64,000 nt of DNA, taken from positions 930,001-994,000 of the forward strand of contig NW_027191452.1 of assembly GCF_011745625.1 (NCBI RefSeq). Reading direction: 5' to 3'. Origin of the DNA: Cladosporium halotolerans (lineage: Eukaryota). Made by a program: the position numbers and the translations under genes. Position 1 is the stretch's first letter, and each line of letters begins with the position of its first letter. The notes beneath the pieces were generated by a model, which worked only from the letters and a program-made list of their open reading frames with translations, searched no databases and was not told the origin of the DNA. This document shows, in pieces, positions 23,996 to 61,860 of this stretch.

Positions 23996-25353
23996 AGGAT
24001 CGCTTTTGATGCTCTCGTCCCTTCATTTTTTATTTTATTTTTCTTGGTCTGTTTCGATCGTTTCCTTTGTTCGCATCGTTCGGCCGACGAGCTCTGGGTC
24101 TGCGCCCGAACCATGCATTGATCAGCAAAGCCCGTCGGCTTCATTAGAGATACCCTTGATAAATCGGCGCTGCATATCAAATTAAGACTCACAATCTTTC
24201 GAACTTTCTCAACGATCATATGTGTTAAGGCCGCATTTGACGAAGACATGATAGTGCCATCCATGTGAGAATACGTGGAAATGTTGAAGTGTTTCAACCT
24301 AATGGAGTCGTGTTCTTTTGGGATAATGAAGCATTTGGTGTTGCAATTGTCAATAGAGGAATGCTGGCGCGAGCATAGTTATGTCGTCGTCAAACTCTGA
24401 GACACTTGTGATTCCAAAGCCTAAGTGACGTCCCATGACACGAGAGTGACTGGCCAAAGCATCGACATGTTGTCGATACGATTCGAGGGTTACGCGACTC
24501 CGATGTACTGTATTTGTGACTAATGCTAAAGCCGCTGGTATGAGCACTTGACTGATAATCATTCGATAGCCTTCACAGGGAGACGGTGCTGTGTCGTGTG
24601 AAGGGAGGTCTTCGCGGCATCACAGTCATGCGATCCAGAAGCTTGGAGAGGCTGGTGATCCCAAGGCACAGATGCATTGGCACAACACTAGCATGTCTGG
24701 CGAGAGCACGGAGGCACTCTCGAACACACAGGAGGTAGCAGTTTTGTTCGTCTGGGGCGGAGCGAAATTGACTGTAACGTATGTCGTCGAAAGAAGCACA
24801 AGCAACGTGTTCGATGAGATGGAGTTTCGCTAACGCGGATTGTAAAGTGTCCCGACGCCTCGCAAGAATTCATGTCACAGGGGCCGTCGGCAGCAGCACC
24901 AGCTCACGGCGAGAAAAAATCGACTCAAGTCTGACCCAGATTAGAACAAGTGATGATTCACTGTCTGTTACCAAAAAATTGTACTGCTCACAGCGTCATT
25001 CATTACCTTATGGCTCAAGCATGCGAATGGAAGCCAACCCCAACCCTAACCCTATCAACCCCTAGATTATGGATGCCATGTGGCGGGAGGGGCTTCGACG
25101 CTAGACGCCTCGGCTGCCGGCAGTGGGTGGCGTCGCACGCTCGATGACGCGACTAACAGCTCGCATCGCAAGAGGCAGGTGGGAGCTTGATCGCAAATGA
25201 TTTGTAACGGCAAAGGGTAGATATACCTGTACGTTATTCTTGAGTCTGTTCTCAAATCACCTCCATCACACCACCACCTCATTTGTCACCGTGCCTCATA
25301 TAACACCGCGCCGTGTTCTATTGCTGCTGCTCACGCTTACCGGCGCCGCGGTA

Positions 25354-26018
25354 ATGACCTCCATCTTTCAAAAGTTGACTCGACCTTTCACATCCTCAAC
25401 ACTGCGCTTCGCGCCCGAACAAACCGCCAAAATGGACGTCCCTGAAGGCGCGCAGAAGTGCACCCTCGCCGCTGGCTGCTTCTGGGGCGTCGAGCACATG
25501 TACCGCAAGGACTTTGCCTCGAAGGGCCTGCTGGACGCTCGTGTCGGCTACATCGGCGGCGACACCAAGAGCCCCAGCTACCGCTCCGTGTGCTCAGGCA
25601 CCACTGGCCGTGAGTCGCAATCACAGTGTCTCCTTTCTCACATCATGAGCTGACTCCGCCCTTCACAGACGCCGAAGCGCTGCAGGTTGTCTTCGATCCC
25701 GCGCAAGTCTCCTACCGCAGCCTGCTCGAATATTTTTACCGCATGCACGACCCCACCACCGCCAACCGCCAGGGCCCGGATGTTGGCTCGCAATACCGCA
25801 GCGGCATTTTCTACCACGATGCCGAGCAGAAGCAGATTGCCGAGGATGTGACTAAGAAGGCGAATGACCAGTGGTACAACGGCAAGATCGCGACAGAGAT
25901 CTTGGAAGCGGGAACATGGTGGGATGCGGAGTCGTACCACCAGGAGTACCTTCACCACAACCCGAGCGGGTACGAGTGCCCGAGCCACTTCCTCAGGAAG
26001 TTCCCGCCTCTCTCGTAA
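25354..26018 (+). CDS. msrA: Peptide methionine sulfoxide reductase MsrA
   Basis: GCFWG catalytic motif. Intron 25610-25668 restores GHAEA. Also QYRSGIF, AESYHQEYL and GYECPSH. Confidence 0.97.
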
Positions 26019-26236: not shown

Positions 26237-28976
26237 CTACCTGACCGGCAAAGCCTTCTTCTCTTTGTAAACGTCGCCAGTCAGTCTGATTTCATACTCT
26301 TGATCCTTACCCCGGCCCTGTTTCTCCAGCGATCTGACGAGCGGCAACACCTCCCTTCCGAACTGCTCGATCTCCTCATCGTAGTGCAAAAAGGCGGTCA
26401 GGATAATATCAGCACCCAGACTCTTCAACAACAGAATCCGGTCTGCAATCTGCTCCTTGGTGCCAATCAATTTCGTCTTGAACCCGTCATTGTACTGCAC
26501 CAGGTCCTCAAATTTCGAGTTGGCCCACATGCCCGTCTTGTTGTGCGTCGACGCGCCCGCGTTCTGGACCTGCTGCCGGAAGCCTTCGACGGCTTCGGCG
26601 TCCGCTTTGCCCTGGATCTCTTGCAGCACGCGGATCGCTTCTTCCTCAGTCTCGCGGCAGATGACGAAGCCGTTGAGCGCGAACTTGACCTGGCCCTCTC
26701 GGCCTTGGTCTTTGGCGCGCTGCCGGACGTCGGCGATCTGGGTCTGGAAGCCTTCGAGGGTGTTGCCGTTCATGCTGGGAGAGCGTCAGTGATGGTCAAG
26801 GTCGCAGCAAGAGATGTGAGGCTCACAAATAGTAGTCTGATACAGCGGCGCCGTTGTTGCGAGCGTCGTCGCTGTTGCCGCCCTGGAAGATCTCGGGATA
26901 CGGGCGGTTGGGCAAGACGAGAGGCTTTGGCTGCAAAGGGTAGTCGTTGAACTGGTAGAAATCACCCTTGAAGGTGAATTTGTCTTGCGTCCAGATGCCC
27001 TTCAGACATTGGATGAACTCGCGGCTTCGGCGGTAGCGCTCGGAGTGATCAAGCCACCATTGGCCGATTGATGTGAACTGTCTTCTGATTAGTACAACGC
27101 ATTTGGATAATCAATTGTGATGCCATGGGCCTACCTCAGCCTTGAACCAGCCAGAGACCACATTGACGGCGATGCGGCCATCGCAGTAATTGTCAATCGA
27201 GGCGATTTGCTTAGCTGCCACCGCAGGATTCCAGGGACCAGGTAGCAAGGCAGCGATGAGCTTGATGCGTTCTGTCTTGGCCAGGAGCGCTTGAGAGAAT
27301 GTGACGGGCTCATGTTGACTTGCGGCACCATAGCCAGACATGAAACGAATCTGCGAAAGCGCATACTCGAAACCGACCTGTTCGGCAGTACGAGCGTATC
27401 GGACGTTCGACTTGAGGTCCCAGTTCGTACGCTGTGGAATCTTACTGACGACAAGACCACCGGAAACATTTGGCACCCAGTAAGCGAACTTGACCCTGTC
27501 CGGGTCGGCATTGATCTTATCGTGATAGCTCAGGTCAGCATCGGCCTGACTGTAGCCATTGATACCGTTGAGGGTGCCGTTGCCGTTCAAAGGTGGCGAT
27601 AGAGGTGCGGGCGTGCTGGTGCCGCTGTTGCTGGGGCTTCGTCCACCCACCGAGACGACAATGCGCTTGCCACTAACGGTGCCTGCGCGTAGTCGGTCCA
27701 AAGCATCGTTGATACCAGCCAAGCCACCTTCGGCGACTTCGACCTCGGGCAGCTTCAACGACTTAGCAATGAGTAGCTTCTCGAGCCATTCAACAACAGC
27801 GTCACCGTACACCGAAGCCTCGTGGAACAGCTTGATTGGCACTTTGTGAATCGTGACACCCGGCGCAGCTTCTTTGGGAGTGCCAGTCAATCCGAGCAGA
27901 TGAGACTGCGGGCCAGAAGTCGACTTCTGAAGGGCGTCCTGCAGTGCGGATGCAGTCTCTGCACCGACGACGTCAACGCCAAAGCGAAGCTTGCCGCCCG
28001 TGACTGCCTTCAAGACCTCCACGGCCCGTTTGTGGTCATGCCTGTCGATCTGGAAGTCGGCGCCAATCTCTACCAGCCGGTGGCTTCCCTTTGCGAGATC
28101 TGCAATCGCCACGACCCTGAGGCCAGCTAGTTTGGCAAGTTGAATCGCCAGTTGTCCGGTCGTGGTGTTGGCTCCCCATACTGCGATCCAATCCCCAGGC
28201 TTGGGCCTCTCTGACTGGGAGATGCTACCAAAGACTTCTCCTCGGATGTCATCAGGCACGTGGAGCGGGTTCAGACTACGCGCAATCTGAAGGAAGTCAG
28301 GACCGTTTGGCCCTTGAACTGGTCGAGAGAAGTCGAGGCCGAAGCTGATACCCAGCGCAATCTGTGCGGCGACGAACGCGACACCGAGAGCTGCGCCCTC
28401 CTTCACTTGAACGCCCTGAGGGATGCGAGCGACGTTGCTGGGGGTTGTGACGACGTACTCTTGATACGCTGCCTTGCGCACATCGCGGTAGTCTGTCGAA
28501 GGACCGAATACAACATCCCCTTGTTTGATTCGGCTTTCCTTGCGAGATCCCTTGACGACAATACCGGCAAAGTCGCGACCATTGACCCACGGGTAGCTAG
28601 GCTGGCTGAAGCCGTAGTCGGCGCCCTTCCAGTCTACTGGGTTGAGGCCAATGGCAAGGGTCTGGACGAGGATCTCGTCATCACCGTGGAGTTCTGGGAT
28701 TTCCTTGGACTTCTCAAGAGTGTACTTTTGGCGAGGGCCATGCAAAAGTAGCAGGTCCTGCTGAGGCTTTTCGAGGCGTAGAAATTCGTCTTCGTCGTGA
28801 ACCGCGCTCGCCTCGACTTTTGCTAGGCCATTGCTTCTAGGAGAGTCGTGATTGCCGATGCCGTTCGGTTTTAGACCGAGGTTGCTGAAAGGGGCCGAAG
28901 GCGGCGATTTGGCGTGGCCGTTGACGCCATTCTGCTTCAGCGAGAGAAACTGCGTAGAATCATCGACGGAAGGCAT
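26237..28976 (-). CDS. Fusion: zinc-free MDR/enoyl-reductase-like oxidoreductase + SfnG-type (dimethylsulfone) luciferase-like flavin monooxygenase
   Basis: Exon 1 28976-27135 carries the MDR domain (IGLNPVDWK, GRDFAGIV, WGANTTTG) then KFAYWVPNVSGGLVVSKIPQRT..VNVVSGWFKAE. Intron 27134-27078. Exon 2 FTSIGQWWLDHSERYRRSREF..EIFQGG. Intron ~26827-26775 (GTGAGC..CTGAC..CAG). Exon 3 ..FEDLVQYNDGFKTKLIGT..FLHYDEE. Confidence 0.92.
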
Positions 28977-31464
28977 GTTTGCTATCGCTTGAGGAAAGAT
29001 GAAAAAGAAATGGACAGAGCTCCAGAAAGCTCCAAAAAACATCTGAAAGCGACAGGCATTTACCTTAGCGCCATGTACCTACGTATGAACCTTAGGCATG
29101 AGGAATCTCGCGCTACGATCACAACATCGTAGCTAGTCGAGTGTTTCAATGGTGATGTATGGCCATTGAAGGCCATGATATGGCGTGCGTGCTGCTCGGG
29201 GGAGAGGATGGGGGTTTAGTACGATGGCGTGCTCTTACCCCACCTGACAGCACCAGCAAGTATGTTGTCGCAATCGCAACCAGCCACCGTTTTGAAAGTC
29301 GTCTGTCCATTCGGTTGCTTTTGCACTAATGTTGTGCTTCCCTTGAAGGTGCTGCGGATTTTCGAATCTCCGGTTAGGTGATGGCGCAGAATGCTGTGTT
29401 GTGTGGCTGGCTTTTGGTGATAAACCGGCAGCTTCGTGGTTAGGAACCATATATTGGCCAGCAACTTCTAGGAAGGCGTTCTCTGGTTGCCGAGACAGAC
29501 ATCGCCGTTCGCTTTGGGTTGAATTTTGGCTGACGCGAAGACATGATGGGTGATACGATTGAGTATCGAATCCGAATCTCTCGCCAGCATGGCCTACCCA
29601 AGGATGCGTAGCCACATGGAAGGAGCGTCAGCCCTGGTTAGCCTCGTAGCGATTGAGTTTCTCAGCCGCGCAGGCACCTTTGCGATCGGTGACGAGATGA
29701 TTTCCGATACTGCTCGGGCGCATGTGGTTCAAATCGAAGGAATCCGAGCCGCTCGAGGGCCTCAAGACCTTCGCTTCGCAGCTCCAGATCGTAGAGGTGT
29801 CCTTCCTCACCGAATGATTCGGACCTGGATTATGCGTTACTTAACCTCAAAATGGCCACCATCCGTACCCACTCGTTGAAGAGCGTTCGTTGAGCGTCCT
29901 TCCGCACACATCGGACGGCACCCATCGAGTCGCCTCCTCTTCACATCTTTGAGTTGCGCGGCTGCCATCAGAATTCTCGCTTTCCATATAGTGCTGCCAT
30001 TGAAAGGCTTTGTTCCGAAACCTGCGATCATTGCCACTTGCTCACCTTGCCTAGAGGAGGTGATAGTCTCGTCCTCGTCTTCAGCCTCATTATCCGTCGA
30101 CTTGACTGTTCGTACGCTTCGTGGTCCTCGCCGACGACAGCGAGATTGTCTATCAAGATTGTGAATACGCGCGTACTTGGTCACAATCCTAGGTTGGGGG
30201 AGAGAGGGCCACCCGCCAAGTTGAACCTCCAGGCAGAGCGGCTCGGGCGGCAAGCCTGTTCTCAGGCCTTCCAAATTGATGCCATTCGCCGCAGGCTCTA
30301 TCCTGCACCCGTCAGCTCTGATCACGAGCTCTACCACGGGATAATCCTTGCAAGGCCTAGAACATGCAGACCTTCAGGCTCCTCTGCTCCACTCAGGTTC
30401 TGCTTTGTACGCTGATTTCGCAAACGCGAGAAAACATCTCCGTGCGCACGGTCTGGCACACCCTTCTCCGCAAAGGCGCCTGCGCGCCGCTCGTCGCCAA
30501 GGGTACCATGATATCTTTCAGTGCTAATCACGCATAAGCATGAATGCTAAAAAACGCCACCCACGCAATGAGGCTTCGAGGGCCGTACATCACGGCTTCG
30601 GCATTGGCCGATTGCAATCGCCCTGCGTTCGGGGACGCCGTGATTGCCGGAGACACTCCCGCCGCCGGAGTCTGGGGTGTCGCACTGCGAGCGAGGCTAC
30701 GGCCTCAGTCATGGGAACCCGAGGGGTACGGCACTGACGGCCACATGGCGGACCATTGAGACTGGTGCAATTGAGCTTGACATAGACGGCGCAACTCTGG
30801 TAGTCATCCAATGCGGACGCGGAATGCTGAACAACCGACCCCACTGTCGCTGTGTCTCATACACCATGTGGAGAGGGTGTGAGACGATAGGATCCTGCAC
30901 TAACCATACGAGGCTATACAAAGGTCAGATCGCAAGCCACGGCGCGGATGCGGCTGCAGATATGCCTGTCCGGTGGACGCTATTCTGCCGACAAAGTGAG
31001 GGGCCGCTTGGCAACCCTAGTCGCACAGTGTCGCGTGGCAGAGCTACTAATCGACTTGAAGATGAAGTCGCGAGACCGCTAGCAGGTGTTGATATCCCCT
31101 TCGAGCTGGTCGTCAGATATGGCCCTGCCAGGGTATCTGTATATCCGTATCAATACGCTATCGTTGCAAAATGATTACAGTAACGCCTTGAAAACCTCGT
31201 GGCATCTGACACACCGAAAGCCGAGGGTTGCAGCACTAAGACGCGGCTCGTGGCCAGCCCCGCCAGGAAGGATCATCCGTGCTACGACAAGGTTGGATTG
31301 TCATTCTCCAAGACCCACCTCCAGCTGAAGCCGCTGGGGCCCCAGACCTTGGCGTGGAGATTCCCATATATCAAGCATGGTGCCAGCGTGCTTGGGGCGG
31401 GTGCCGGTCGTGCTTGTCCCTTGCAAACTTCCGCCTTTCAAGCTGCCCAGAAGCCGGTTCCAAG

Positions 31465-33965: not shown

Positions 33966-35200
33966 TCACATGAAACTTGCCCGCGCATGAATTGATATCT
34001 GGTCATGTATCGTCGTGGCTGGGGAATCTAACAGCTGTGCTTGTTCTTCACCACCTGGCACGACCTTTCGAGGCAATTCGTTTCGTTCCACCTCTTCCAT
34101 CTCCAGGTATTCCAGCGAGAAATCATCGCGGTATTCCACCTCAGCTGAGTCTTGCGTCATGTATTTCATCACATCTAGGCGCATGTGGTGCCTCCTACAG
34201 CCAATTCAACGTCGTCGATTGCCGAAAAGGCGGTCTGTTGGGTCAACCCATGCACACCGAGAGGAACGAACTCTGATTCTTACTGCTTCAGCCAATCTTC
34301 CTAGTAGGGGATTGATCCGACGTGCTGCTTGCTCTGTTCTGGCAACGGTTGTGCTAGCAAGTACTTCACCATTGGGGATGCTTGCTCATGGTCGTGAGTA
34401 GCAGCTCAATGCGCGCCTCCACCAACGAGATGCATCGCATCCGCGTCTGCAACCTCGCCTCATCATCTCATCGGATACGTGCCCTACTGTAGATATACTA
34501 CTGCTGATACTACCTCACGAATCGACATATTATACACGTCTTTGTCGCAACATAGGCGTTACATCTAATTGGCAGTACGCCCTGTCCAAATCACGTCGTT
34601 TCCGAGAGTAGCTCGATATGCGGCTTCCTTCAGTGAAATATGTTTCCGATGCGACACCAGATACTAGACCAGTGACTTTGATTTCATTGTCCAAAGCGTC
34701 CATACAATGTTCCATCATGTCTTTTCGACTTTATCAGGCAAGACTCACCTGTCTGCAATGATCGTCAAAAGCTCAACGTTGTCTTGCGCACGATTGCTCT
34801 CACGTCATTGGTCATTGGCTTCAGCTTGACACGGCTAGGCAGCATACCACCTGCTGAGCAAGCCAGACGAAGTAGCTTCACAGCCTTTGACGCTGAATTA
34901 ACCATTTGTGAGGAATTCATGAGTGAAGGCCTGCGACCTCTCAATTATCATGTTTGTTCAGTGCCTTGATGATCACACGTCCGACTACAAAAGACCCAAT
35001 TCACTGCCACTGCCGGTCATAGGCGACATACCGTCTCTAGGCACTATTGCCGAGGCGTCATTCTGCCTTTTCTGGTATAGATCTTGCAAGGGTAACATCA
35101 CTCTGAGCGGTCCGCTTCTGACATGCACGCTCCCAGTCAATAATGAGCTACCAGACACGACTCTGGCGTTGTCAATCTCGGTCACACTCTTCTCGCCATC
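33966..35200. pseudogene. Probable degenerate gene fragments left of the AT island
   Basis: Protein-like minus frames broken by stops at probable Gln codons (MVKYLLAQPLPEQSKQHVGSIPY*EDWLKQ*ESEFVPLG..). No family recognised. Confidence 0.35.
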
Positions 35201-35349
35201 TTAGTCTCTGATATATCTGTTGGTGTGTTCGAACTAATATACGTAATACCTAGTCTGCGGTCTACTATATAAAGTTATTGAAAACTTTCCTATTGATTAA
35301 AGATATTTTATTGATCTTAATATTCCGATCTATACTAGAAATCATTCTA

Positions 35350-37075
35350 AATAATCTATAGCTTAAATTCATATTTCTAGCTTTCTTAAAGATATATCTC
35401 GATAATTTTATTCTTAGAGATTAAGTTCGACTATTAAGTCTACTAATATAAAGTTTATATATTTCTATACTTATTAATAATATCTTTAGTTAAAATTTAT
35501 ATTTTAGACTCTTTTAAATAAGAAAAACTGAAAAAGCTCTATTATTAAGTATATATCTTAACTATTTAGTATTTTAATATTAATTCTATATATTTCTATA
35601 CTTAGAAATAATACCTCTAGTTAAAATCCATATTTCTAACTTTTCTAAATTTAAAAAATTTAAATAGCTTTATCAATATATTAAAATTTTAACTATATAT
35701 TCTTTTAATATAGATTCTTTATACTCTTATATCTATTAGTAATATCTCTAGTTAAGATTTATTCTTCTAATCTTTCTAAATTTCAAAAAAATCTAATATT
35801 TATATTACTAGTCTTATATTTTAACTACTTAATCTTTTAATATAAACCTTATATACCTTTATACTTATTACGAATATCTCTAGTTAAGATTTATATTCCT
35901 AATTCTTATAAATATAAAAAATCTAAATAGTTCTATTATTAAATATAAATTTTAACTACTTAACCTTTTAGTATAGATCTTATATACTTTTATATCTATT
36001 AATAGTATCTCTAGTTAAAATTTATATCTCTAATTTTTAATAATTAAAAAAATTAAATTAACTTTATTATTATCTATAGATTTTAACTATTTAATCTTTT
36101 GATATAAACCTTATATACCTTTATACTTATTAAGAATATCTCTAGTTCAAATTTATATTCCTAACTTTTATAAATAATAAAAAATCTATATAGTTTCATT
36201 ATTAAATATAAATTTTAACTACTAAGTCTTTTAATATAAATCTTTTATATCCTTATATCTATTAATAATATCTCTAGTTAAAATATATATTTATAATCTA
36301 TTTAAATAAGATTTTTTAAAATAATTCTATTATTCTATATGAATTTTAACTATTAATTCTTTTATTATATTTCTTATATACTCTTCTATATACGAGTAGT
36401 ATCTCTAGTTAAAATTTATATCTCTAATTTCTAAAAATGAAAGAAATTTAAATTAATTCTATTATTAACTATAAACTTTAACTCCTAATCTACTTAGTAT
36501 AAATCTTATATACTCCTCTATCTATTAATAATATCTCTAGTTAAAATTTATTATTATATTTTTTTTAAATTAAGAAAATTTGAATATCTTTATTATTATA
36601 TATAAATCTTAACTACTAAGTTTTTTAATATAAATCTTATATATTATTATATATATTAATAGTATCTCTAAATAAAATTTATATTCTTAACTTTTCTAAA
36701 TAAAAAAAATCTAAATAATTCTATTCTTAGATATAAATTTTAACTACTTATTCTTTTAGTATAGATCTTATATATATTTATACCTATTAATAGTATCTCT
36801 AGTTAATATTTATATACCTAGCTCTTATAAATTAAAAAAACTAAAATAACTTTCTTATTATTATTAAATTTTAACTGCTTAGTTTTTTAATATAAATCTT
36901 ATATACTCTTATATCTATTAATATTATTTCTAGTTAAAATTTATATTTCTATCTTTTTAAAATATCAAATTTTCAAATAGCTCTATTATTATATATAAAT
37001 TTCAACTATTTATTTATCTTATATGATTCTCTAGCTAGCTATAATCTAAATATAGTATTTCTAGTTAAGATATCT
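35350..37075. repeat. AT-rich tandem array, ~131-bp unit, ~14 copies, RIP-like erosion
   Basis: The (C)TAGTT core of the anchor ATCTCTAGTTAA begins at 35486, 35617, 35748, 35880, 36011, 36142, 36274, 36405, 36537, 36668, 36799, 36930 and 37061 (spacing 131-132). TpA is abundant; CpA/TpG are nearly absent. Confidence 0.95.
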
Positions 37076-37426
37076 TAACATAGTACTATATACTCTGATG
37101 TTAGATAGACTTATTATGAACTATCATGAATATCATTAGGTATCAGATTCCAAATTCTTACTCATTTACCATATCCTATATACTATTTTCTTACTCATAA
37201 CATATTCACTAGCTATTCAAGTCTAGCTACTGTTCTTTTGGGTTGATTAATACTGTCTGAGACTACCGACGACCAGCTTTTCGGAGTCCCCTCAATAGCT
37301 TTACGAAATCAACTAAATCTCATTGTTCTTCTCCATGCCTTTTTCCCTTGTCTTACTCTAGCACAAATTACTTGATTCGGCGGAATCTGGCGAAATCTGG
37401 ACTCACTCTCGATGTGGCGCATCCAA

Positions 37427-37505
37427 GCTTGGGTTAAGGCGCATAGGCGTATGGTACGAGATCGTACGTCTTATGGACCATACGCTTGTGCCTTTGAACC
37501 CAAGC
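37427..37505. repeat. Imperfect 79-nt inverted repeat (fold-back)
   Basis: Left arm GCTTGGGTTAAGGCGCATAGGCGTATGGT; the reverse complement of the right arm is GCTTGGGTTCAAAGGCACAAGCGTATGGT. Confidence 0.8.
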
Positions 37506-39373
37506 CGATAATGTTGTCATATCAATCGCAGAAATTCAACTAAATAGATATCTTAGCGAGTCCGATCGTCTCCAGTCTGTATTTGCGGACAGCAAAGAGC
37601 GGACCGTCACTCCTCCGTTGCCAGCATTTTCATCTACTGTTTTTGGAAAAAGTTTCATTTCCCCGATGACTGTAGACCAGAAGAGAGTCGCGGTCCATGA
37701 TGCTTTTGTTGGATTGTGTATCGACCACTGGAAAGCGAATTCCCCCATGCTCAAAAGCCAGCACCAACGATAGTTTCTTGACAGAACTTCGGCGCTCTAA
37801 TTATCCCTTTACACTCGCTTGCGACTAATTCAACGTCGCCAAGCGAGAGGCAATATCAGAACAAAGGTTCCTAGCTCGCAATCTCGTGTTGTTATCATGT
37901 GTTGCGGCCTTCGCGCGGGTTATTCTGGATCAGGGTCAGCCGACTGAGAAGACTCTGACCGTTCATTGCTCTTCAATCATTGGTCAATAGGACCGATGCA
38001 CTGCGCACCGAAACAGGGAAGTGGCGACCCAGTTGCTCGCGCCTTCCTACAACCACGTTTCTCAAAACGATGTGTATTACCTCAATGTTCGAAAGCTATC
38101 GACTAATAAAATTAAACGTCGTCTGAAAGATCGGTGGCGGAACGACATCCGCTGTGCGTCGTCGAATCATGTTGAAGCCATTCTTGACGTGGTCCGCTCG
38201 TTAAACTTTAGTCTCAAGTTCCTGCGGATCCATCGCTCGCTTGGGCAACGCGAAGATCATTCTTTGATAATTCAGCAGCTAAACGTTGGTCGCTCTTTGA
38301 TCGAGATGCACTCTTTGGCCGTCAAGCCTTTTTCTGAGCGATGGATTACCTCGAGTGCAGCTGCAAACTATCTTTTGGCTCACATTGAGAAATTCTCGTC
38401 GCAAATTCATACTTATGTGCGCGGCGAGCAGAGCGAAGCCGGCCGTTCACATGCTTCTCTTCTTGAATCACATCACCCACCGAAAACCCATATCAATAGT
38501 AATCTTTTTGTCTCGCACAGAGCTTGGGTCATTGTGTGATCATCCTCCGATCTCGAGTTGTTCGAAAGTTCAGACTCAGTGTAGATCGAACTGTTTCGCA
38601 CTGCACGCGAGCAAGCCCCGAACGTGAGTCTTGCACCTCGTCATTTGCTGATCTTGCATTCTGCTCGGGATCGAGAAATAGGCTCATTTCCTCGCAACGT
38701 GTGACGCCAATTGCGGATGGGTACTTCAGCACCTTTTTACAAGTGGCACCCTTTTCAAGATGAATCAGTTCAAGCACAAGAAGAACTTCCAGATACCACT
38801 TTTGATATCGGCCTGAGACTGGTCGGATGCAACATCCGGTTGGTCCTCGCGATCGATTGTGTCGAACCGCCATTTGCATGTTGATTGTGACACGGCAGGT
38901 ACTTGCTTCTACATCCTCGATGTGGCTTCTTCTCATATCTGAGACGATCTGCGCAATTGGTGTTTACGACCTTGCCGTAATTGCTGTACTGGTTTTTGAA
39001 TGCACTGAGCGACTGCATTTGCACCAATCAAAAGCGCGCCACATGTGTCGCACCCCCATGTTCTCCTCATCGACCCACATGGCAATGGGACGCGACAACA
39101 AGATCCAGACACACCACAAGCAAGTTCAGCCAATGACTGCTGCACATGATCGATGTCGGAGCAAGCATCAAAGCCCGGAACGTTCATATCACCATCGTAT
39201 ATGTAGAATCCGGCTTACATCTCCATATGTTTGGCCAAACAAATTTGATCAACGCCTGCACTTCGACGATGTAATTCCAAAAAGCAAGTCGAAACGTTCA
39301 TGTCATTAACATACATGTAGAACCTGCATACATCCATCATGTCCAAGAAAGCCTATCTACCCAAAAGCTCTCA

Positions 39374-55603: not shown

Positions 55604-57247
55604 TCAGTCGCTACCCCCAGAGCTCTGCTTCGTGGGTAGTCCAGGCGGCACGCCGAACCCGGCACTACCCTGCGTGCCCACGGGACTCTCACCAGCGCCG
55701 ACATCAACACCCGATCGTTTCTTCTCTTTCTTTGCCCACCTCAAGCCACAGGCGTTGCACAAGGTCTTCGGGCCCTTCGGGCCTTTCCGCCATTCGGGCG
55801 AGTCCAGCGTGCCGCAATCGGCGCACACGTACTCGTCGGCGACCTTGGTCTTCTTTTTCTCTTTCTTGCTGCTGTCGCGTTCTCGGTCACGGTCAAGCAG
55901 GATCGCAATGCCGGCATCGCCGCGGATGAGAGCGGGCGAAGTGTCTCCAGTAGAGATGCCGTGGCTGCGTTCGCCGTCCCGATACCGCAGTCCGGTTAGG
56001 AGCTCGATTGATTCGAGGTGCGTAGAATTTGACTCATATCGAGACATTTTGTCGGCGATGGAATCGCTTTTCTGGCCACTGAGCGCTTGGCTGAGGTTCT
56101 GTCGAGTGAGGGCGGTATTCGATATCGTCGGCTTCGCGGGCGGCGGCATGCCTTGGTAGTTCGGACTGGGTTCTTTGCGGGAACCCTCGGGTGTCTGTTC
56201 GGGGCTCGTTTTCTGAGCTTTGTTCATCTGCTCTGAAGGCGTGGCTGCTGTGGTTGAGAGCTGATCGCGGTAAATGCGCTCTTGCTCGGCCGTCTCATCG
56301 CGCTCCTCACGTTTGAGCTCGTCGATCCGTTTCATCAACCGCTCGTTCTCAATCTTGTGTTCGAGAAAGGAGTCCAACAAAGCCGCGTTCTTGGTGGGGT
56401 ATGGTCTTGCCATCATGAAGAAACCCCTACAGACTCCAGCTATGTGCGCTTGTTCAGGTGGACCTTGCTCCAGCATTTGCGCTTGTTGGGTGCCGGGCTC
56501 GGGGGGACTGATATGTGGGTGACCGTGGCATTCAAATATCAGGTACGTGCCATCGTCTTTCTTGAATCGGTAGAAGAAGCGCAGCACGTTGCCGCTCGCG
56601 ATACTTTCGTTGAACTCGCGCATGAAGATCCCCGTGTCGTCAGGATGTACATACTCGCCGATGAACTTGCCAATAAGATGTCGCGGCTCGTATCCTGTTA
56701 TCGCTTGGCAGGACGGGGAGACATACAGTATGCGGCCGTCTGGTGTAAGGATATGCAGAAAATCTCGTAGCTCTTCAATGACCCGTTGCGACCAGTTCCT
56801 TCTCTTTGTAAACTCCGTGAGTGTGGTGTGAGACGGCTGATGCATCCCATGTGTTGTTGGCAGAGGTCCCGCGCCCGCACCCGACATTGTCGCTTCACTC
56901 TGGTCTTGGAGCTGCTGCTGGCCTTGCTGGCTCTGCTCATTTTCCAGCATTCCGAACGGTATGTTTCCAGCTCCCGCGGCCATGCTCTGCAATCGTGAAT
57001 CCAATTGTTGCGTGCCCATTCCATTCTCAATAGAAGGCGCAGCAGAAGCCTTGAAATTTGACGGATCTCCGACAGCGCCGCTCAGGTCCACGTCCAGATC
57101 CATGGGCAGCGACATGTCCAGGTCCAGGTTGCCTCCCATCAAGTCGGTCGGGTCTAAGAGCGGCATTTCGGACGCAGGACCGGACAACGGGACCTGCCCC
57201 AGGCCGCTGCCCTGCTGAGAGGCGCCCAGAGGATTGTACATGGACAT
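55604..57247 (-). CDS. wc-2: White collar-2 blue-light regulator (PAS + GATA zinc finger)
   Basis: [12 protein letters not shown], a PAS domain (ILYVSPS..YVHPDD), [21 protein letters not shown], and [26 protein letters not shown]. Confidence 0.96.
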
Positions 57248-57954
57248 GGCGGTCGCGCTGGCGCGGTCAGCTTCCCCGACGCGGTCAGTTTACGGCGCGC
57301 AGGGGTCGCATCGACGATGCGACTCGCGATCAAGAGGGAGGCTTTGCGGAGCACGCGACGCGGCGTCTGCGGGTCGGCACCGGGCGGGCAGGAGATGACA
57401 GTCGGCGCAAATGCAGGAGTTTTCTGGTTCCGGCGTGTGGGCTTCAGCAGCAGGGACGTGAGTGTGTCTGAGCCGAGAAATGTGATACGCGGTACGAGAC
57501 CGAATTTGCGAGAATGGGGAAAGTGAAGTCGCATGGCAATCCGCACGCCGCTGACCGTCTTCTCCCACCACCCTCCCCAGACTCGACTTGCGCCTGCGCG
57601 CCACTGGTGACGCACAGCCTTAGCGCCTCAGCCTGGGACCGAGCGTGGTGAATTGCGCTCACGTGATCGCGCGCCTGCATAAGGCCCCTGCTGCGCGACT
57701 GCCTACGCCGGACGCGACCGTTTGGTACTTCACTTGCGCCACCAGCTCCTAACAAAGCAAAAGTCTCCGGCTGCTCTGCCAGCTTTCTTGCTCACACACG
57801 AGCGTGCAAGGCTTTCAGTATGAGCTCCGCGCAGCACCAGTAAATACAAATCTCTGCACCGCCCTGCTTCCCGTCCAAAACCCATCTCCTCTTCTGCGCC
57901 CACGGGCATCCATCGCCTGCTTCCACAGCCAGACCCTCTTGCCGGTCGCCCACC

Positions 57955-60900
57955 ATGTCTCGCATAGACAAACTGTCCATCCTGGGCGTTCGCTCCTTCG
58001 ACAACACCCGGTCCGAAACCATGCAATTCACGCCGCCACTCACGCTCATCGTTGGCACGAACGGGTCCGGCAAAACCACCATTATCGAATGTCTCAAGTA
58101 CGCGACAACCGGAGAGCTGCCACCAAACGGTAAGCTGGGAGGCGCCTTCATCCACGACCCCAACCTCGCCCAGGACAAGGAAGTCATGGCGCAGGTGAAG
58201 GTCAGCTTCAGGAATACCGAGGGCAACCGAATGATCTGCACCCGGAATCTCCAGCTCACCGTGAAAAAGAATGCACGTAGCATGAAAGCTCTAGAATCTA
58301 ACATCAACGTCTGGAAGAACGGTGAGAAGAGGTCGATCTCCTCTAGGGTGGCGGAGGTCAACGAGGTCCTACCGAAGTACCTCGGAACCAGCAAAGCCGT
58401 GCTTGACTATGTGATCTTTTGCCATCAGGACGAGTCCCTCTGGCCTCTCTCTACTCCGAAGGACCTGAAGGAGCGTTTCGACAAGATTTTCGAGGCCCAG
58501 AAATATTCTCAGGCCATCGACAACATCAAAGTCATGCGCAAAGGGCAGAATGAAAAGCTGATCGGCTACAAGAAAGACTATGAGCACAGCAAATCCGACA
58601 AGCAAAAGGCTGAGAAGTCCGAGAAACGCAGTATGGATCTATCTCAGGAAATCGAGGAGCATCGGGCCAGGAGCGAGGAACTCGGCGACCAGATCCGTGC
58701 CGCGACTGAGAAAGCCGAGCATGCTTGGAGTCTGGTTGAAGAAGCTGGAGTCATTGTTGGAAAGCTTACTGGCAAGCGCATCGAAGAAAAGACCAAGGAA
58801 GAGAGTGTGCAGTCCTTGAGAATGAATCTGTCTGAGATGTCGGAGAGTGACGAAGAGCTACGGCAAATGCTTGACGATTATGAAGGGCGTGTGGATACCC
58901 TCAAACGCGATCTCGCGTCGAGCACGGGTCGCTACGGAGACCTGAACAGAGATATCAACGAGGTCAGGAGCAAAGTCGTGACGAAGGAACGCGAGTATGG
59001 CTCCTATGAAGCGCAACATCAGAGCTACGAGCGTCAACTGGTGAATCGTGAAACCCTGGTCAAGGAAACTGCACGACGCCACAATATCCGCGGTTACGAT
59101 CTTGAGGTCAATGATGACCAAGCCAGGGCCTTCATGGATCGCATCGCTAAAATGGCTCGCGATCAAAATGCTGCTTTCGAGCGCGCTCGCCGTGAGACCG
59201 CCGAGGAGCTCCAAAACGCTCAGAAAGTCATTACCAATCTCAATGAGAAGAAGTCAGCTCTGAACTCGCGCAAAGAAAGTGCCAAGCAGACCATTGCTTC
59301 CAACGACCAAAAGATCGGCTCTTTACAAGATAAACTGGATCAAATCAGCGTCGATGAGGGTGGCAAGGCGGCCATTGAATCATCCTTGCGGGATGTTGAA
59401 GGACGTCTGGGATCGAACAAAACTACTTTCGAGAACGCCGCATGGGACCAGCAGATCCAGGCTGCTGACACGAAGCTTCGCGATCTTGACGAACAGAAGG
59501 AGAAGCTGGACACGGAGCTTGTCCAAGGCACACGCCAGGCCGGCGACTCTGCTCGGCTGGACTTCGTGCAGAAGGAGCTCAAAGAACGCCAACAGAGCTT
59601 GAAGACAATGTCAGGAGCGCATGGCGACAAGATCGTTTCTGTTCTTGGCGGGGGATGGCAACCATCTTCCGTAGAGACTGCTTTCCTGCGTGCCGTGGAA
59701 GAGAGGCAAAGCAGCGTGGTCGAAGCGGAAAACCAGCGCGACGGTACAGGGCGAGAGCTGGAGCAGCTCGATTTCAAAATCAACAACCTTCGGTCAGATC
59801 TCAAGAACAAGCGCCTCGAAGTACAAGCCGCGGCCAAGGCAATCAGAGATGCTTTAGAATGCGAGCCAAAAGATTACAACGATGAGCTCAGCGAGATCGA
59901 ACGCAGTTACAGCATTTCCAAGACCGACGCAGACTCTGCGAAGCTCATCCGTCAGTATTTTGAACAGTGTCTGAAAGTTGCGAATGAGCACAAGGCTTGC
60001 AACACGTGCAAAAGAGGGTTCAAGAGCGACAGGGAGGCTGACAACATGCGTACTGCTGTTCAGAGGCAACTCAGTCACGTGGAAGATGTTGACACCAAGC
60101 AACTGGAAGAGCTGGAGGAGCAGTTGAAGGCTGCCAGGGCTGTCGGATCCGACTTCGATACTTGGGAAAGGCTCACGCAAAAGGACATCCCAACGATGGA
60201 GGCTGAGGAGAGGAAGCTGACAGACAAGAGAGAAAAGTTGAACATGCAACTGGAACACCAAGATGGTGAGGTCGATGATCGTAAAGCTGCGAAGCGTGAC
60301 GTCGATGCCATGGCTCGCACCGTGCAGAACATCGCGAAGTACAGCAACGAAATCGGAGCCTTTGAGGGCCAGATTGAGGAGCTGCTTGCTAAGCAGAAGG
60401 CTTCTGGAGGATCCCGCGGTCTGGAAGCCGTTCAAGATGACATCAGGAAGGTCAATGAAGAAGCGAGGAACGCGAAAGCCCATCTCGCTAAACTCACCAC
60501 CGAAAAAGACCGCACGAAGAGCCTAATCAACGCCTTGGAACTCGAAGTCCGGGACATCAAGGGCAGGTTGAGCACTGCAGACTACCAATTGAAGGAAAAG
60601 CTTTCGCTCGAGGGCCACATTGAAGAGCTCAAAGGTGCCAACAACGCCCAGCGTGAAGCTATGCGTGCAGTTGATGAAGATGTTCAAGCCCTTGGGCCAC
60701 AGCTTTCCCAGGCACAAGCCAAGTACGACGATATTTCAACTCGCGGCGCAGACAAGGACCGCGAGTTGCAGGCAGAGACGAGCAAGCTCAATACTAGTCT
60801 CAACCAGCTCAAGATGGCGAGCCAGGAGATCGAGTCGTATATCGAGCGCGGAGGTGAGAACCAGATGAAACGCGCCCAGCGTGAGATTGATGGTTTAAAG

Positions 60901-61860
60901 GCCGAAGTCGATCGTCTCGAACAGGACCAGCATGTTGTCGTCCGCGAAGTGAAGCGTCTTGAAGGAGCATTGCGCAACGTAGATGAAACCAAACGGGCAG
61001 TTTCAGACAACCAGCGCTACCGACGTGATCTTCGGGGGTTGAATACAGTCCGCGCCGAAATTGAGGAGCTCGAGCGTACGAATGCGGAAGCTGACAAGCT
61101 TCGTAACGAACGCGAAGGTGCACGATGGCAGTTGGAGCGCAACAAGCTTGCCGGTGAACAGGCTACCATCGTTGGTGAGATGAAGTCGAAGGATGTGCAG
61201 CTGCAGCAACTGCTGGCCGATTATGACATTGAATACAAGAATGCTGCGCACCAGTATCGGCTCGCGCACGTTCAAGTCGAGACGACAAAGGCCTGCATTG
61301 AGGACCTGGGACGCTACATTGGCGCCCTCGACAAAGCTGTCATGAAGTATCACACATTGAAGATGGAAGAGATCAACCGCATCATCGACGAGCTCTGGCG
61401 AAAGACCTACCAGGGAACCGATGTCGACACTATCCTCATCAAGTCCGAGAGCGAAAACGCGAGAGCCAACAAGAGCTACAATTATCGTGTGTGCATGATC
61501 AAGTCCGATGCCGAAATGGACATGCGCGGACGCTGTTCCGCCGGTCAAAGGGTATTGGCTTCAATTATTATTCGCCTTGCTTTGGCCGAGTGCTTCGGTG
61601 TCAACTGCGGGCTGATCGCGCTGGATGAGCCGACGACCAACCTCGACCGCGACAACATTCGTGCTCTGGCTGAAAGCTTGTCTGAGATCATCCGTGTGCG
61701 TCGTGCGCAGAAGAACTTCCAATTGATCGTCATCACGCACGACGAGGATTTCCTGCGCGCTATGCAGTGTGGAGACTACGCCGACAACTACTGGAGAGTC
61801 TCGAGGAACGAAAGGCAGAAAAGCCAAATCGAGAGGCAGAGTATTGCGGAGGTCTTGTAA
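57955..61860 (+). CDS. RAD50: DNA repair protein Rad50 (single exon)
   Basis: Walker A GTNGSGKT, FCHQDES, zinc hook CNTC, signature RGRCSAGQ, Walker B ALDEPTTNLD, ITHD. Confidence 0.98.
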   Translation: MSRIDKLSILGVRSFDNTRSETMQFTPPLTLIVGTNGSGKTTIIECLKYATTGELPPNGKLGGAFIHDPNLAQDKEVMAQVKVSFRNTEGNRMICTRNLQLTVKKNARSMKALESNINVWKNGEKRSISSRVAEVNEVLPKYLGTSKAVLDYVIFCHQDESLWPLSTPKDLKERFDKIFEAQKYSQAIDNIKVMRKGQNEKLIGYKKDYEHSKSDKQKAEKSEKRSMDLSQEIEEHRARSEELGDQIRAATEKAEHAWSLVEEAGVIVGKLTGKRIEEKTKEESVQSLRMNLSEMSESDEELRQMLDDYEGRVDTLKRDLASSTGRYGDLNRDINEVRSKVVTKEREYGSYEAQHQSYERQLVNRETLVKETARRHNIRGYDLEVNDDQARAFMDRIAKMARDQNAAFERARRETAEELQNAQKVITNLNEKKSALNSRKESAKQTIASNDQKIGSLQDKLDQISVDEGGKAAIESSLRDVEGRLGSNKTTFENAAWDQQIQAADTKLRDLDEQKEKLDTELVQGTRQAGDSARLDFVQKELKERQQSLKTMSGAHGDKIVSVLGGGWQPSSVETAFLRAVEERQSSVVEAENQRDGTGRELEQLDFKINNLRSDLKNKRLEVQAAAKAIRDALECEPKDYNDELSEIERSYSISKTDADSAKLIRQYFEQCLKVANEHKACNTCKRGFKSDREADNMRTAVQRQLSHVEDVDTKQLEELEEQLKAARAVGSDFDTWERLTQKDIPTMEAEERKLTDKREKLNMQLEHQDGEVDDRKAAKRDVDAMARTVQNIAKYSNEIGAFEGQIEELLAKQKASGGSRGLEAVQDDIRKVNEEARNAKAHLAKLTTEKDRTKSLINALELEVRDIKGRLSTADYQLKEKLSLEGHIEELKGANNAQREAMRAVDEDVQALGPQLSQAQAKYDDISTRGADKDRELQAETSKLNTSLNQLKMASQEIESYIERGGENQMKRAQREIDGLKAEVDRLEQDQHVVVREVKRLEGALRNVDETKRAVSDNQRYRRDLRGLNTVRAEIEELERTNAEADKLRNEREGARWQLERNKLAGEQATIVGEMKSKDVQLQQLLADYDIEYKNAAHQYRLAHVQVETTKACIEDLGRYIGALDKAVMKYHTLKMEEINRIIDELWRKTYQGTDVDTILIKSESENARANKSYNYRVCMIKSDAEMDMRGRCSAGQRVLASIIIRLALAECFGVNCGLIALDEPTTNLDRDNIRALAESLSEIIRVRRAQKNFQLIVITHDEDFLRAMQCGDYADNYWRVSRNERQKSQIERQSIAEVL

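Follow-up and report, generated by a model that had tools for sequence, protein, structure and literature searches.

Background

In Acinetobacter baylyi one reductase, MsuE, is described as powering all the monooxygenases of the route from dimethylsulfide to sulfite (PMC13352529). For fungi, Linder's 2018 review describes the monooxygenases dependent on reduced flavin mononucleotide (FMNH2) as uncharacterised both genetically and biochemically and states that none of them had been linked to a reductase (PMC5857272), and the use of sulfones and sulfonates by fungi is poorly understood. Here we describe a gene of Cladosporium halotolerans in which a domain of the medium-chain dehydrogenase/reductase (MDR) superfamily is joined, in one reading frame, to a domain resembling the bacterial dimethylsulfone (DMSO2) monooxygenase SfnG. 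The gene lies in a stretch of 64,000 nt (RefSeq assembly GCF_011745625.1, contig NW_027191452.1, positions 930,001 to 994,000 of the forward strand), which we call the window; all coordinates given below are those of the whole window, and all features of the gene are on its minus strand.

The gene was singled out by a reading of the letters alone (the sequence-only reading), which took it for a candidate self-sufficient DMSO2 monooxygenase and knew of no characterised example. Our literature search, supplements aside, likewise found no characterisation of the fused protein, and no recognition of this MDR subfamily as a partner of fungal SfnG. The SfnG enzyme type is already known and the domain combination is visible in public annotation; what is new here is the recognition of the MDR subfamily as a conserved partner of fungal SfnG, in a DszC/SfnB-like cluster. 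Self-sufficiency of the fused protein, with the MDR domain making FMNH2, stands as a candidate property that now has comparative support.

Gene structure and transcription

The gene (28976-26237) has three exons and runs from an ATG at 28976 to a TAG stop at 26239-26237. Its joined coding sequence of 2631 nt encodes 876 aa plus the stop and holds a single stop codon. Exon 1 (27135..28976; 1842 nt, 614 codons) is free of stops, ends in the residues SGWFKAE, and comprises an N-terminal low-complexity stretch, the MDR domain, a linker and the start of the SfnG domain (its first ~120 residues). It is followed by intron 1 (27078..27134; 57 nt, GTAGGC...CAG, branch site tactaat) and exon 2 (26827..27077; 251 nt), which encodes the middle of the SfnG domain with H136, Y140 and the GGNS phosphate motif. 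Intron 2 (26775..26826; 52 nt, GTGAGC...CAG, branch site cactgac) separates this from exon 3 (26237..26774), which holds the SfnG lid, the C-terminal part with F267, W285, Y296 and N297, and the TAG stop.

By composition and by an alignment of 29 sequences, residues 1-69 (28770..28976) form a low-complexity region rich in Ser, Leu, Gly, Asn and Pro, which varies among homologues apart from a common MPS start. The MDR domain (27639..28769, residues about 70-446) ends in SGKRIVV. Between the domains lies a linker (27522..27638, residues about 447-485, or up to about 492 when delimited more widely) in which Ser, Pro, Asn and Gly are frequent. It contains no Met and is variable in both length and sequence among homologues.

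The evidence on transcription consists of assembled contigs, not reads, from four public runs (X1, X2, X14 and X18), so that transcript ends and minor internal starts are beyond judgement. The joint of intron 1 (27077|27135, 57 nt skipped, GT..AG on the minus strand) was found in all four runs and that of intron 2 (26774|26827, 52 nt skipped) in X1 and X2. X14 and X18 represent a relative that is ~96% alike, and there the second joint is 26774|26830 with AAG between, a 3-nt variant. A single contig of 2592 nt from X14, which is recorded as a metatranscriptome, lies on 26289-26774, 26830-27077 and 27135-28988; it starts 12 nt before the ATG, covers MDR, linker and SfnG, and ends ~50 nt short of the stop. 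In X1, a run that is RNA by guess only, both joints appear in exact form on one contig of 1548 nt, which begins in the SfnG half and reaches 27909 in that of the MDR. As DNA cannot yield intron-less contigs, the spliced form is RNA, and the gene is transcribed as one spliced RNA through both halves. No contig covered 26100-26203 or 29012-29200, which says nothing on the transcript ends. The contigs skip exactly the two introns that had been predicted in the SfnG half, and the single spliced gene and single transcript postulated by the sequence-only reading were thereby confirmed, the latter at the level of contigs.

The SfnG domain

The C-terminal domain was matched by the Pfam family Bac_luciferase, exons 1, 2 and 3 taking up profile positions 2-112, 116-186 and 192-313, and by the NCBIfam SfnG equivalog TIGR04021, of which the same exons cover model positions 1-120, 121-200 and 202-349. 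The TIGR04021 scores of the exons (194.9, 116.1 and 215.9) add up to 526.9 bits, a sum of exons scored separately and not a score of the spliced protein as a whole, against a curated cut-off of 382.95. The intact homologue of Fulvia fulva (P0043) scored 557.1 bits. In three bacterial genomes the true SfnG proteins scored 586-601 bits, with the runner-up among the luciferase-like paralogues never above 184; by its score the fungal domain falls in the upper mode, that of true SfnG. Models of SsuD gave at most 37 bits per exon.

The SfnG structure 8t0u was the best Protein Data Bank (PDB) match of all three exons (E 9.1e-51, 1.7e-27 and 3.1e-45). On its chain exon 1 ends at residue 148, exon 2 corresponds to 149-226 and exon 3 to 229-379. 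Both the SfnG model and this chain run unbroken across the exon joints and therefore lend the splice sites independent support.

The residues reported to bind DMSO2 in Pseudomonas fluorescens SfnG are W11, R55, Y60, W121, F267, W285, Y296 and N297, and the reported FMN contacts are T52, Q53, I54, R55, G120, W121, H136, Y140, G186, S188, S189 and N284 (PMC11588060; the number in the 8t0u chain is the number in that paper + 23). In the alignment to 8t0u all eight DMSO2-binding residues are identical in the window protein, and from this residue-for-residue match we infer DMSO2 as the substrate. Nine of the 12 FMN contacts are identical; the remaining three (T52S, S188N and N284M) carry changes that are common to the fungal homologues. 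The motifs that the sequence-only reading had quoted as SfnG-like, KFAYWVPNVSGGLVVS, LPGPW, VSGWF, ERYRRS, FEDLVQYNDGFKTKLIGT and FLHYDEE, are all present.

Over its full length the domain is 52-62% identical to the SfnG of all 80 bacterial genome loci fetched. It should be noted that this first bacterial sample was fetched by patterns favouring Actinomycetota, and that neither it nor the trees include Pseudomonadota. A search for cluster representatives with exon 3 gave mostly fragments, and P0133, P0134 and P0265 were taken further. We then built a tree of 61 rows, made up of 23 fused fungal proteins, 32 bacterial loci drawn from the 80 with no more than two per genus, three cluster representatives and three neighbouring luciferase-like monooxygenase (LLM) paralogues, with P0087 and P0248 omitted as shortened or odd. 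A split with support 98 set all SfnG rows, including that of the window, apart from the three other LLM paralogues. The domain thus groups with SfnG and not with SsuD or other LLMs, in keeping with the sequence-only reading. As judged from its sequence, the C-terminal domain is a genuine SfnG-type monooxygenase dependent on FMNH2 and O2.

One of the omitted proteins, P0248, is an SfnG-like representative of 367 aa that scored 364 bits on TIGR04021 and has oddly many Val, Cys, Tyr and Phe residues at positions that are conserved in the other proteins; a mutated pseudogene or a mis-translated sequence may lie behind it.

The MDR domain

In the N-terminal half Pfam matched ADH_N at residues 98-186 (43.8 bits) and ADH_zinc_N at residues 274-394 (41.8 bits), both over the cut-offs. 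Profile models of both halves were thus matched, and these together with the open frame bear out the predicted order of a complete MDR domain, a Ser/Pro/NG-type linker and an SfnG-type domain with no stop or intron between them.

The best PDB sequence matches of the MDR domain were zeta-crystallin (1yb5) and LovC (3b6z). Zinc alcohol dehydrogenases (ADHs) carry the catalytic ligand pattern Cys, His-Glu of GHE and Cys. In the window protein GRDFAG occupies the place of GHE and NPVDWK that of the first Cys, and the catalytic zinc ligands are absent. Lys117 aligns with K54 of LovC, where this residue is the proton donor, and is invariant in 36/36 aligned family members; the K54S mutant of LovC (PDB 3gqv) was among the structural matches. 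The cofactor motif WGANTTTG aligns with YGGSTATA of LovC (GxxTxTx type). An AlphaFold model of residues 66-450 had a mean predicted local distance difference test (pLDDT) of 86.2 and a predicted template modelling score (pTM) of 0.88, and its best Foldseek match was LovC with NADP (3b70; E 5.4e-26, template modelling score 0.73/0.79). Next came Zta1, RTN4IP1, the CurK enoyl reductase and bacterial quinone oxidoreductases, and all of the at least 500 PDB matches were MDRs; the domain is accordingly modelled with a LovC-like fold. Its language-model neighbours were fungal clusters named enoyl reductase or trans-enoyl reductase.

Further motifs, NP.DWKG, GRDFAG and STDYRD.RKAA.QEY, are invariant and peculiar to the family (36/36 members aligned). 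These are as strongly conserved in the fused as in the stand-alone proteins, which argues that the MDR domain is most likely an active enzyme; its sequence points to a catalytically intact, zinc-free, LovC-like NAD(P)H oxidoreductase.

Two local features may be mentioned. Residues 114-131 (DWKGADYGFSQPSYPWV) are among the best-conserved stretches of the domain yet have the lowest model confidence, with a pLDDT of 38-49, and a mobile loop over the active site would fit this. Further, the strand after the glycine-rich motif (residues ~300-306, RVVAIAD) ends in a near-invariant Asp, at a position where LovC has no acidic residue. In Rossmann folds an Asp at the end of that strand usually goes with NADH over NADPH.

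Distribution and origin of the fusion

When exon 1 was used for searching, 105 of the 120 best homologues carried both the MDR and the luciferase Pfam domains. Fused proteins were found in Dothideomycetes of the Mycosphaerellales type and in others from rock and leaves or among the sooty moulds (Friedmanniomyces, Cryoendolithus, Elasticomyces, Peltaster, Fulvia, Pseudocercospora and others), and also in Botryosphaeriales and in lichen-forming Lecanoromycetes and Arthoniomycetes. Some of them are already annotated publicly, with names assigned automatically; one is 'FMNH(2)-dependent dimethylsulfone monooxygenase [Fulvia fulva]'.

A search with exon 3 among longer proteins gave 77 luciferase-domain-only proteins among the 120 best matches. 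Stand-alone SfnG of ~370-445 aa occurs in Chaetothyriales, Pleosporales, Sordariomycetes, Leotiomycetes, Aureobasidium and several lichen fungi. We examined 26 N-termini, of which 19 consisted of Met, 15-70 low-complexity residues and the fungal motif DP.R..FAYWVPNVSGGL, and these are real stand-alone SfnGs. Another four (Polychaeton, Saccharata, Phyllosticta citricarpa and Mycena maculata) start inside the last MDR strand (MR.G.VSGKRIVV...), as does P0307 from a Lecanoromycetidae species. Because they begin inside this strand, the five are shortened models of fused genes.

In an SfnG tree of 86 rows (P0308, P0319 and P0311 were left out as the motif pattern missed their start) the 75 fungal rows formed one clade against 11 bacterial rows with support 99. 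Within it 36/36 fused rows formed one clade with support 98, nested among the stand-alone forms. The fused MDR domains likewise came out as one group in the MDR tree (14/14 rows, support 94). The phylogenies of the two halves, which the sequence-only reading had proposed to run, thus both place the fused forms together, and as these trees have it the fusion arose once, as a single derived clade. The relation between fungal and bacterial SfnG was a polytomy in the 61-row tree, and no bacterial donor was picked out.

The sequence-only reading had seen here a bacterial-type gene domesticated and fused to an NAD(P)H-binding domain. A bacterial-type SfnG with introns is indeed present, and so is the fusion to an MDR of the NAD(P)H-binding kind, whose origin can now be placed in one derived clade. 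What does not hold is a recent or lineage-private domestication, as stand-alone SfnG is widespread in Ascomycota; its distribution and phylogeny mark SfnG as a bacterial-type gene that is old and widespread among fungi.

Some entries in these searches deserve a remark. A fused MDR-SfnG protein of 977 aa (P0025), 70-85% identical to that of the window, is filed under Quercus suber as 'alkanesulfonate monooxygenase 1' and is probably fungal DNA in a plant assembly. Two Mycena species (Basidiomycota) have the halves of the fused gene as split models (P0111 and P0354). Their rows nest within the Botryosphaeriales group in the SfnG and MDR trees (support 97 and 100), and the copies represent either a transfer from an ascomycete or contamination. 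Models of 1200-1507 aa from Zymoseptoria, Cercospora, Lecanosticta, Zasmidium and Elsinoe (P0276, P0273, P0277, P0278 and P0310) contain the fused protein and 300-600 residues without a Pfam match; these were probably merged with a neighbouring gene.

Unfused MDR and SfnG genes as neighbours

Stand-alone members of the MDR subfamily, 59-68% identical to P0112, are common in Eurotiomycetes. In Chaenotheca gracillima an MDR gene (P0471, M4579_002652) and a stand-alone SfnG gene (P0341, M4579_002651), both complete, have consecutive locus tags and are recorded on a contig of equal length. Further, we fetched 80 metagenome loci with the fungal SfnG alignment. Loci with an identity of at least ~60-66% to the window together with introns, or with eukaryotic neighbours, were regarded as fungal-like (12 loci), and the other 68 as bacterial-like.

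A relative of the window's MDR was present in four of the 12 fungal-like loci (L094, L095, L096 and L137) and in none of the 68 bacterial-like ones; the flanks of L092, L131, L146 and L151 were too short to judge. L094, which is nearest to Saxophila, has the fused gene, on a contig that begins inside the MDR. In L095, L096 and L137 an intron-bearing MDR gene, 36-54% identical to that of the window, lies on the same strand 0.65-0.9 kb upstream of SfnG and has its own stop (...RIVVPLRT*, ...LVVQCEAIC* and ...RIVVPLRS*, respectively), and in L095 and L137 the SfnG has its own Met and leader. In the SfnG tree the four tandem cases, these three and Chaenotheca, fall in three separate fungal groups, with Pleosporales, with Leotiomycetes (L137 beside Lachnellula) and with Chaenotheca, all of them outside the fused clade. 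By these comparisons a pair of separate genes, MDR then SfnG, either came before the fusion or exists alongside it.

A gene of the DszC/SfnB type with an acyl-CoA dehydrogenase (ACAD) fold lies upstream of the MDR on the other strand in L095, L096 and L137. The same gene is found 0.8-2 kb from SfnG in L091, L093, L100 and L134, hence in 7/7 unfused fungal-like loci with flanks, and it is ~48-52% identical to one beside SfnG in Nocardioides. In Exophiala spinifera the SfnG KIW15895 and a DszC-like protein KIW15893 are reported two accession numbers apart (PMC11778650). ACAD-fold genes were also near bacterial SfnG, in 34/80 genome loci and 39/68 metagenome loci.

Classical flavin reductases were sought with PF03358 or PF01613 seeds. 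They lie within 5 kb of SfnG in 21/80 bacterial genome loci and 41/68 bacterial-like metagenome loci, and none was found in the 12 fungal-like metagenome loci. An MDR near bacterial SfnG, on the other hand, was seen in 1/80 genome loci, as a weak match 6 kb off, and in 0/68 metagenome loci. The 64-kb window held no ACAD-fold gene, second LLM or classical flavin reductase (tblastn, three reductase seeds).

The gene after the fused gene in L094 (L094:2410-3991, plus strand) encodes a monooxygenase of the FMN-dependent NtaA/DmoA family (TIGR03860, 341.6 bits, cut-off 279.7). This enzyme, too, depends on FMNH2 and lacks its own reductase.

Proposed function

The conserved fusion together with the recurrent separate MDR-SfnG neighbourhood makes the MDR very likely the working partner of SfnG, and that the two are functionally coupled in some way we hold to be highly probable on this comparative evidence. 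As the best explanation we suggest that the gene encodes a two-domain enzyme of sulfur scavenging. The SfnG domain would bind FMNH2, O2 and DMSO2, or similar small dialkyl sulfones, and release methanesulfinate and formaldehyde. The MDR domain would reduce FMN by hydride transfer from NAD(P)H and pass FMNH2 to the SfnG domain, thereby taking the place that SsuE/MsuE- or HpaC-type flavin reductases hold in bacterial sfn/msu clusters, and the fusion would leave the autoxidisable FMNH2 a shorter way to travel. One lineage would have lost the stop codon and the intergenic spacer, to give one polypeptide. This lineage would comprise Dothideomycetes of the Mycosphaerellales and Botryosphaeriales types, some lichen fungi and, by transfer or contamination, Mycena.

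That the MDR supplies FMNH2 is a tentative proposal, whose chance we put slightly below even. Several observations suggest it. The neighbours of the MDR (SfnG, DszC/SfnB-type and NtaA/DmoA-type enzymes) are three unrelated kinds of oxygenase that share only the need for FMNH2, and the MDR is the only enzyme of the NAD(P)H type in the fungal clusters, where it stands in the place at which bacteria have a flavin reductase. The counts of classical flavin reductases and of MDRs near bacterial and fungal-like SfnG, and the service of MsuE to a whole bacterial pathway, speak for it as well. Somewhat more tentative still is the wider idea that the zinc-free LovC-like MDR subfamily may be an unrecognised class of NAD(P)H:FMN reductases driving fungal SfnG, DszC/SfnB-like and DszA/DmoA-like oxygenases, with the SfnG fusion as a possible first self-sufficient luciferase-like monooxygenase of eukaryotes, suited to atmospherically deposited DMSO2.

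Several points weigh against an FMN-reducing MDR. To our knowledge no MDR-family protein is known as a flavin reductase, and a literature search for one gave general reviews only. The fold and the conserved Lys117 of the MDR are what one expects of an enzyme that reduces enoyl groups or quinones, and match no known flavin reductase. Nor did Pfam assign the protein to any family of flavin reductases (SsuE/MsuE PF03358, HpaC-like PF01613); what we propose is that the MDR may work like a flavin reductase, not that it is a member of a known family of these. Stand-alone MDR orthologues are common in Aspergillus, Penicillium, Talaromyces and Onygenales, and the 120 best SfnG matches, which reach down to ~72% identity, include no SfnG from those taxa, so that the MDR may have a job independent of SfnG. 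No MDR was found within 10 kb of SfnG in L091 and L093 (near-identical, Sordariales-like, and apparently one organism), L100 (Leotiomycete-like) or L134 (Chaetothyriales-like), so that some fungi can dispense with the MDR or have it elsewhere in the genome. Fungal loci with DNA flanks are also few, namely eight usable ones from metagenomes, to which the locus tags of one genome are added. Finally, classical flavin reductases are described from elsewhere in fungal genomes, as the Flavin_Reduct protein of Exophiala (PMC11778650) and in Linder's review (PMC5857272).

Among the alternatives the one that survives best is that the MDR performs a separate reductive step on an organosulfur compound or another substrate of the regulon, such as a C=C bond beside a sulfonyl or carbonyl group, or a quinone, and is linked to SfnG by shared regulation and pathway. 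The LovC-like fold with its Lys matching K54, the trans-enoyl reductase clusters among the language-model neighbours and the abundant stand-alone orthologues in Eurotiomycetes all agree with this, and the invariant STDYRD-x-RK suggests a defined, possibly anionic, substrate. No neighbouring gene points to a candidate substrate, however, and since all eight residues of SfnG's small aromatic DMSO2 cage are kept there is no room for a larger, pre-reduced SfnG substrate. A clade-wide fusion by a short flexible linker is also something one would sooner expect of partners that pass a metabolite or cofactor between them, and we consider a separate step unlikely.

A little less probable again is that the MDR handles the product, by reducing the released formaldehyde, another aldehyde or a pathway intermediate, so that the fusion detoxifies or channels and FMNH2 comes from a general reductase. 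The MDR superfamily includes aldehyde and alcohol dehydrogenases, and some zinc-free yeast MDRs reduce aldehydes. SfnG releases formaldehyde by its known reaction (PMC13352529), the separate classical flavin reductases of fungi (PMC5857272, PMC11778650) could meet the need for FMNH2, and the four fungal-like loci without an adjacent MDR are in line with this too. Set against it, the zinc ligands of aldehyde-active ADHs are absent, with GRDFAG instead of GHE, and the nearest structures are enoyl and quinone reductases. The MDR also neighbours DszC/SfnB-type oxygenases, whose S-oxygenation yields no aldehyde, and apart from the one weak, distant match among the 80 genome loci no MDR or ADH gene was seen beside bacterial SfnG. 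The low cellular demand for sulfur would moreover mean a low flux of formaldehyde.

We regard it as improbable that the MDR is a non-catalytic scaffold or sensor, serving the oligomerisation of SfnG or its regulation by the level of NAD(P)H. In its favour, MDRs are usually dimers. The SfnG tetramer, too, is reported to depend on ligand binding (PMC11588060). But fused and stand-alone members conserve Lys117, the cofactor motif and the substrate-loop motifs equally well, and the existence of the MDR as a separate gene argues for an enzyme in its own right. Least of all do we expect the halves to be functionally unrelated, fused by an accident of gene order or gene calling and expressed apart: public models do split the gene in Polychaeton, Saccharata, Phyllosticta, Mycena and a Lecanoromycetidae species, and the contigs are compatible with internal transcription starts, but no stop interrupts the frame, the linker is free of Met, one spliced RNA contig covers both halves, the split models are truncations as they start in the last MDR strand, the fusion is kept in 36/36 rows of a clade spanning several fungal classes, and the MDR-SfnG neighbourhood recurs outside that clade.

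The gene and its unfused relatives name a candidate partner for fungal SfnG and a small conserved cluster consisting of a DszC/SfnB-like gene, the MDR and SfnG. If the MDR does reduce FMN, it would represent a new fold among known flavin reductases and a new class of these enzymes, and the fused protein would be a naturally self-sufficient, C-S-cleaving monooxygenase of interest for biocatalysis. As the members of the fused clade are largely fungi of rock, leaf surfaces and lichens, we speculate that DMSO2 from the atmosphere is the substrate; FMN reduction by the MDR would then help to explain how such oligotrophic fungi obtain sulfur from DMSO2 derived from atmospheric dimethylsulfide. Should the MDR do something else, its conserved pairing with SfnG would still be a sign that the organosulfur metabolism of fungi includes a step as yet unknown.

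Genomic surroundings

An MsrA gene (PF01625) in two exon pieces lies at 25201-26018 on the plus strand, convergent with the fused gene, with the 3' ends ~220 bp apart. We considered this neighbour as a methyl-sulfur link and dropped it: an MsrA homologue was found in 0/160 SfnG loci from elsewhere, and the neighbourhood therefore looks accidental. Elsewhere the window holds housekeeping genes.

The CYS3-type motif ATGRYRYCAT has three matches in the window (1334, 45856 and 49071), none of them upstream of the gene. Six of 100 shuffles reached this number, and the motif is no evidence either way. As context only, mox-7 and a DszC-like gene of Neurospora are reported to be induced by sulfur starvation and bound by CYS-3 (PMC8550094).

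At 34000-38000 the window has an AT-rich island with GC contents of 0.37 and 0.28, against ~0.55 elsewhere, and no open reading frame (ORF) of at least 130 aa with a Pfam match. Many genomes of Dothideomycetes contain AT-rich, repeat-degraded blocks that look similar. An ORF at 55607-57289 on the minus strand combines PAS and GATA zinc-finger domains, the make-up of a light regulator of the white-collar-2 type, and is adjoined by a Rad50-type gene at 57844-61857.

Comparison with known systems

The C-terminal domain aligns end to end with bacterial SfnG (8t0u/8t0w; Pseudomonas SfnFG/MsuE). In contrast to the bacterial genes, that of the window is eukaryotic and has two spliceosomal introns. 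A conserved N-terminal extension (...DPDR before KFAYW) is found in all fungal SfnGs examined, and T52S, S188N and N284M are fixed in the fungal group. Where bacteria may have an SsuE/MsuE- or HpaC-type reductase near SfnG, the window gene has none nearby and is fused to an MDR domain instead. At the level of clusters, L095, L096 and L137 resemble the bacterial dsz/sfn/msu clusters in holding an SfnG-type LLM and a DszC/SfnB-type ACAD-fold gene, but their third member is the MDR and not a PF03358/PF01613 reductase.

Stand-alone fungal SfnG, such as 'dimethyl sulfone monooxygenase SfnG [Cladophialophora immunda]', belongs to the same clade (support 99), is 72-88% identical over exon 3 and has the same fungal N-terminal motif as the fused form. 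It differs in its length of 370-445 aa and in its leader, which is no more than a short stretch of low complexity; some of these lineages have the MDR as a gene apart, upstream of SfnG, and others have none within 10 kb.

With LovC and the fungal trans-acting enoyl reductases, and with zeta-crystallin/Zta1, the MDR domain shares the fold, the Lys and the cofactor motif. It is, however, only ~21% identical to LovC, has its own invariant motifs, and is associated in the genome not with a polyketide cluster but with FMNH2-dependent oxygenases that serve sulfur scavenging.

As for the fusion itself, the StyA2B-type proteins likewise unite in one polypeptide an oxygenase using free reduced flavin and a domain using NAD(P)H (PMC6017014, PMC4460183). 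The reductase of StyA2B belongs to a recognised flavin-reductase family and its oxygenase is FAD-dependent and of another fold, whereas the partner fused to SfnG in the window is an MDR and is placed at the N-terminus.

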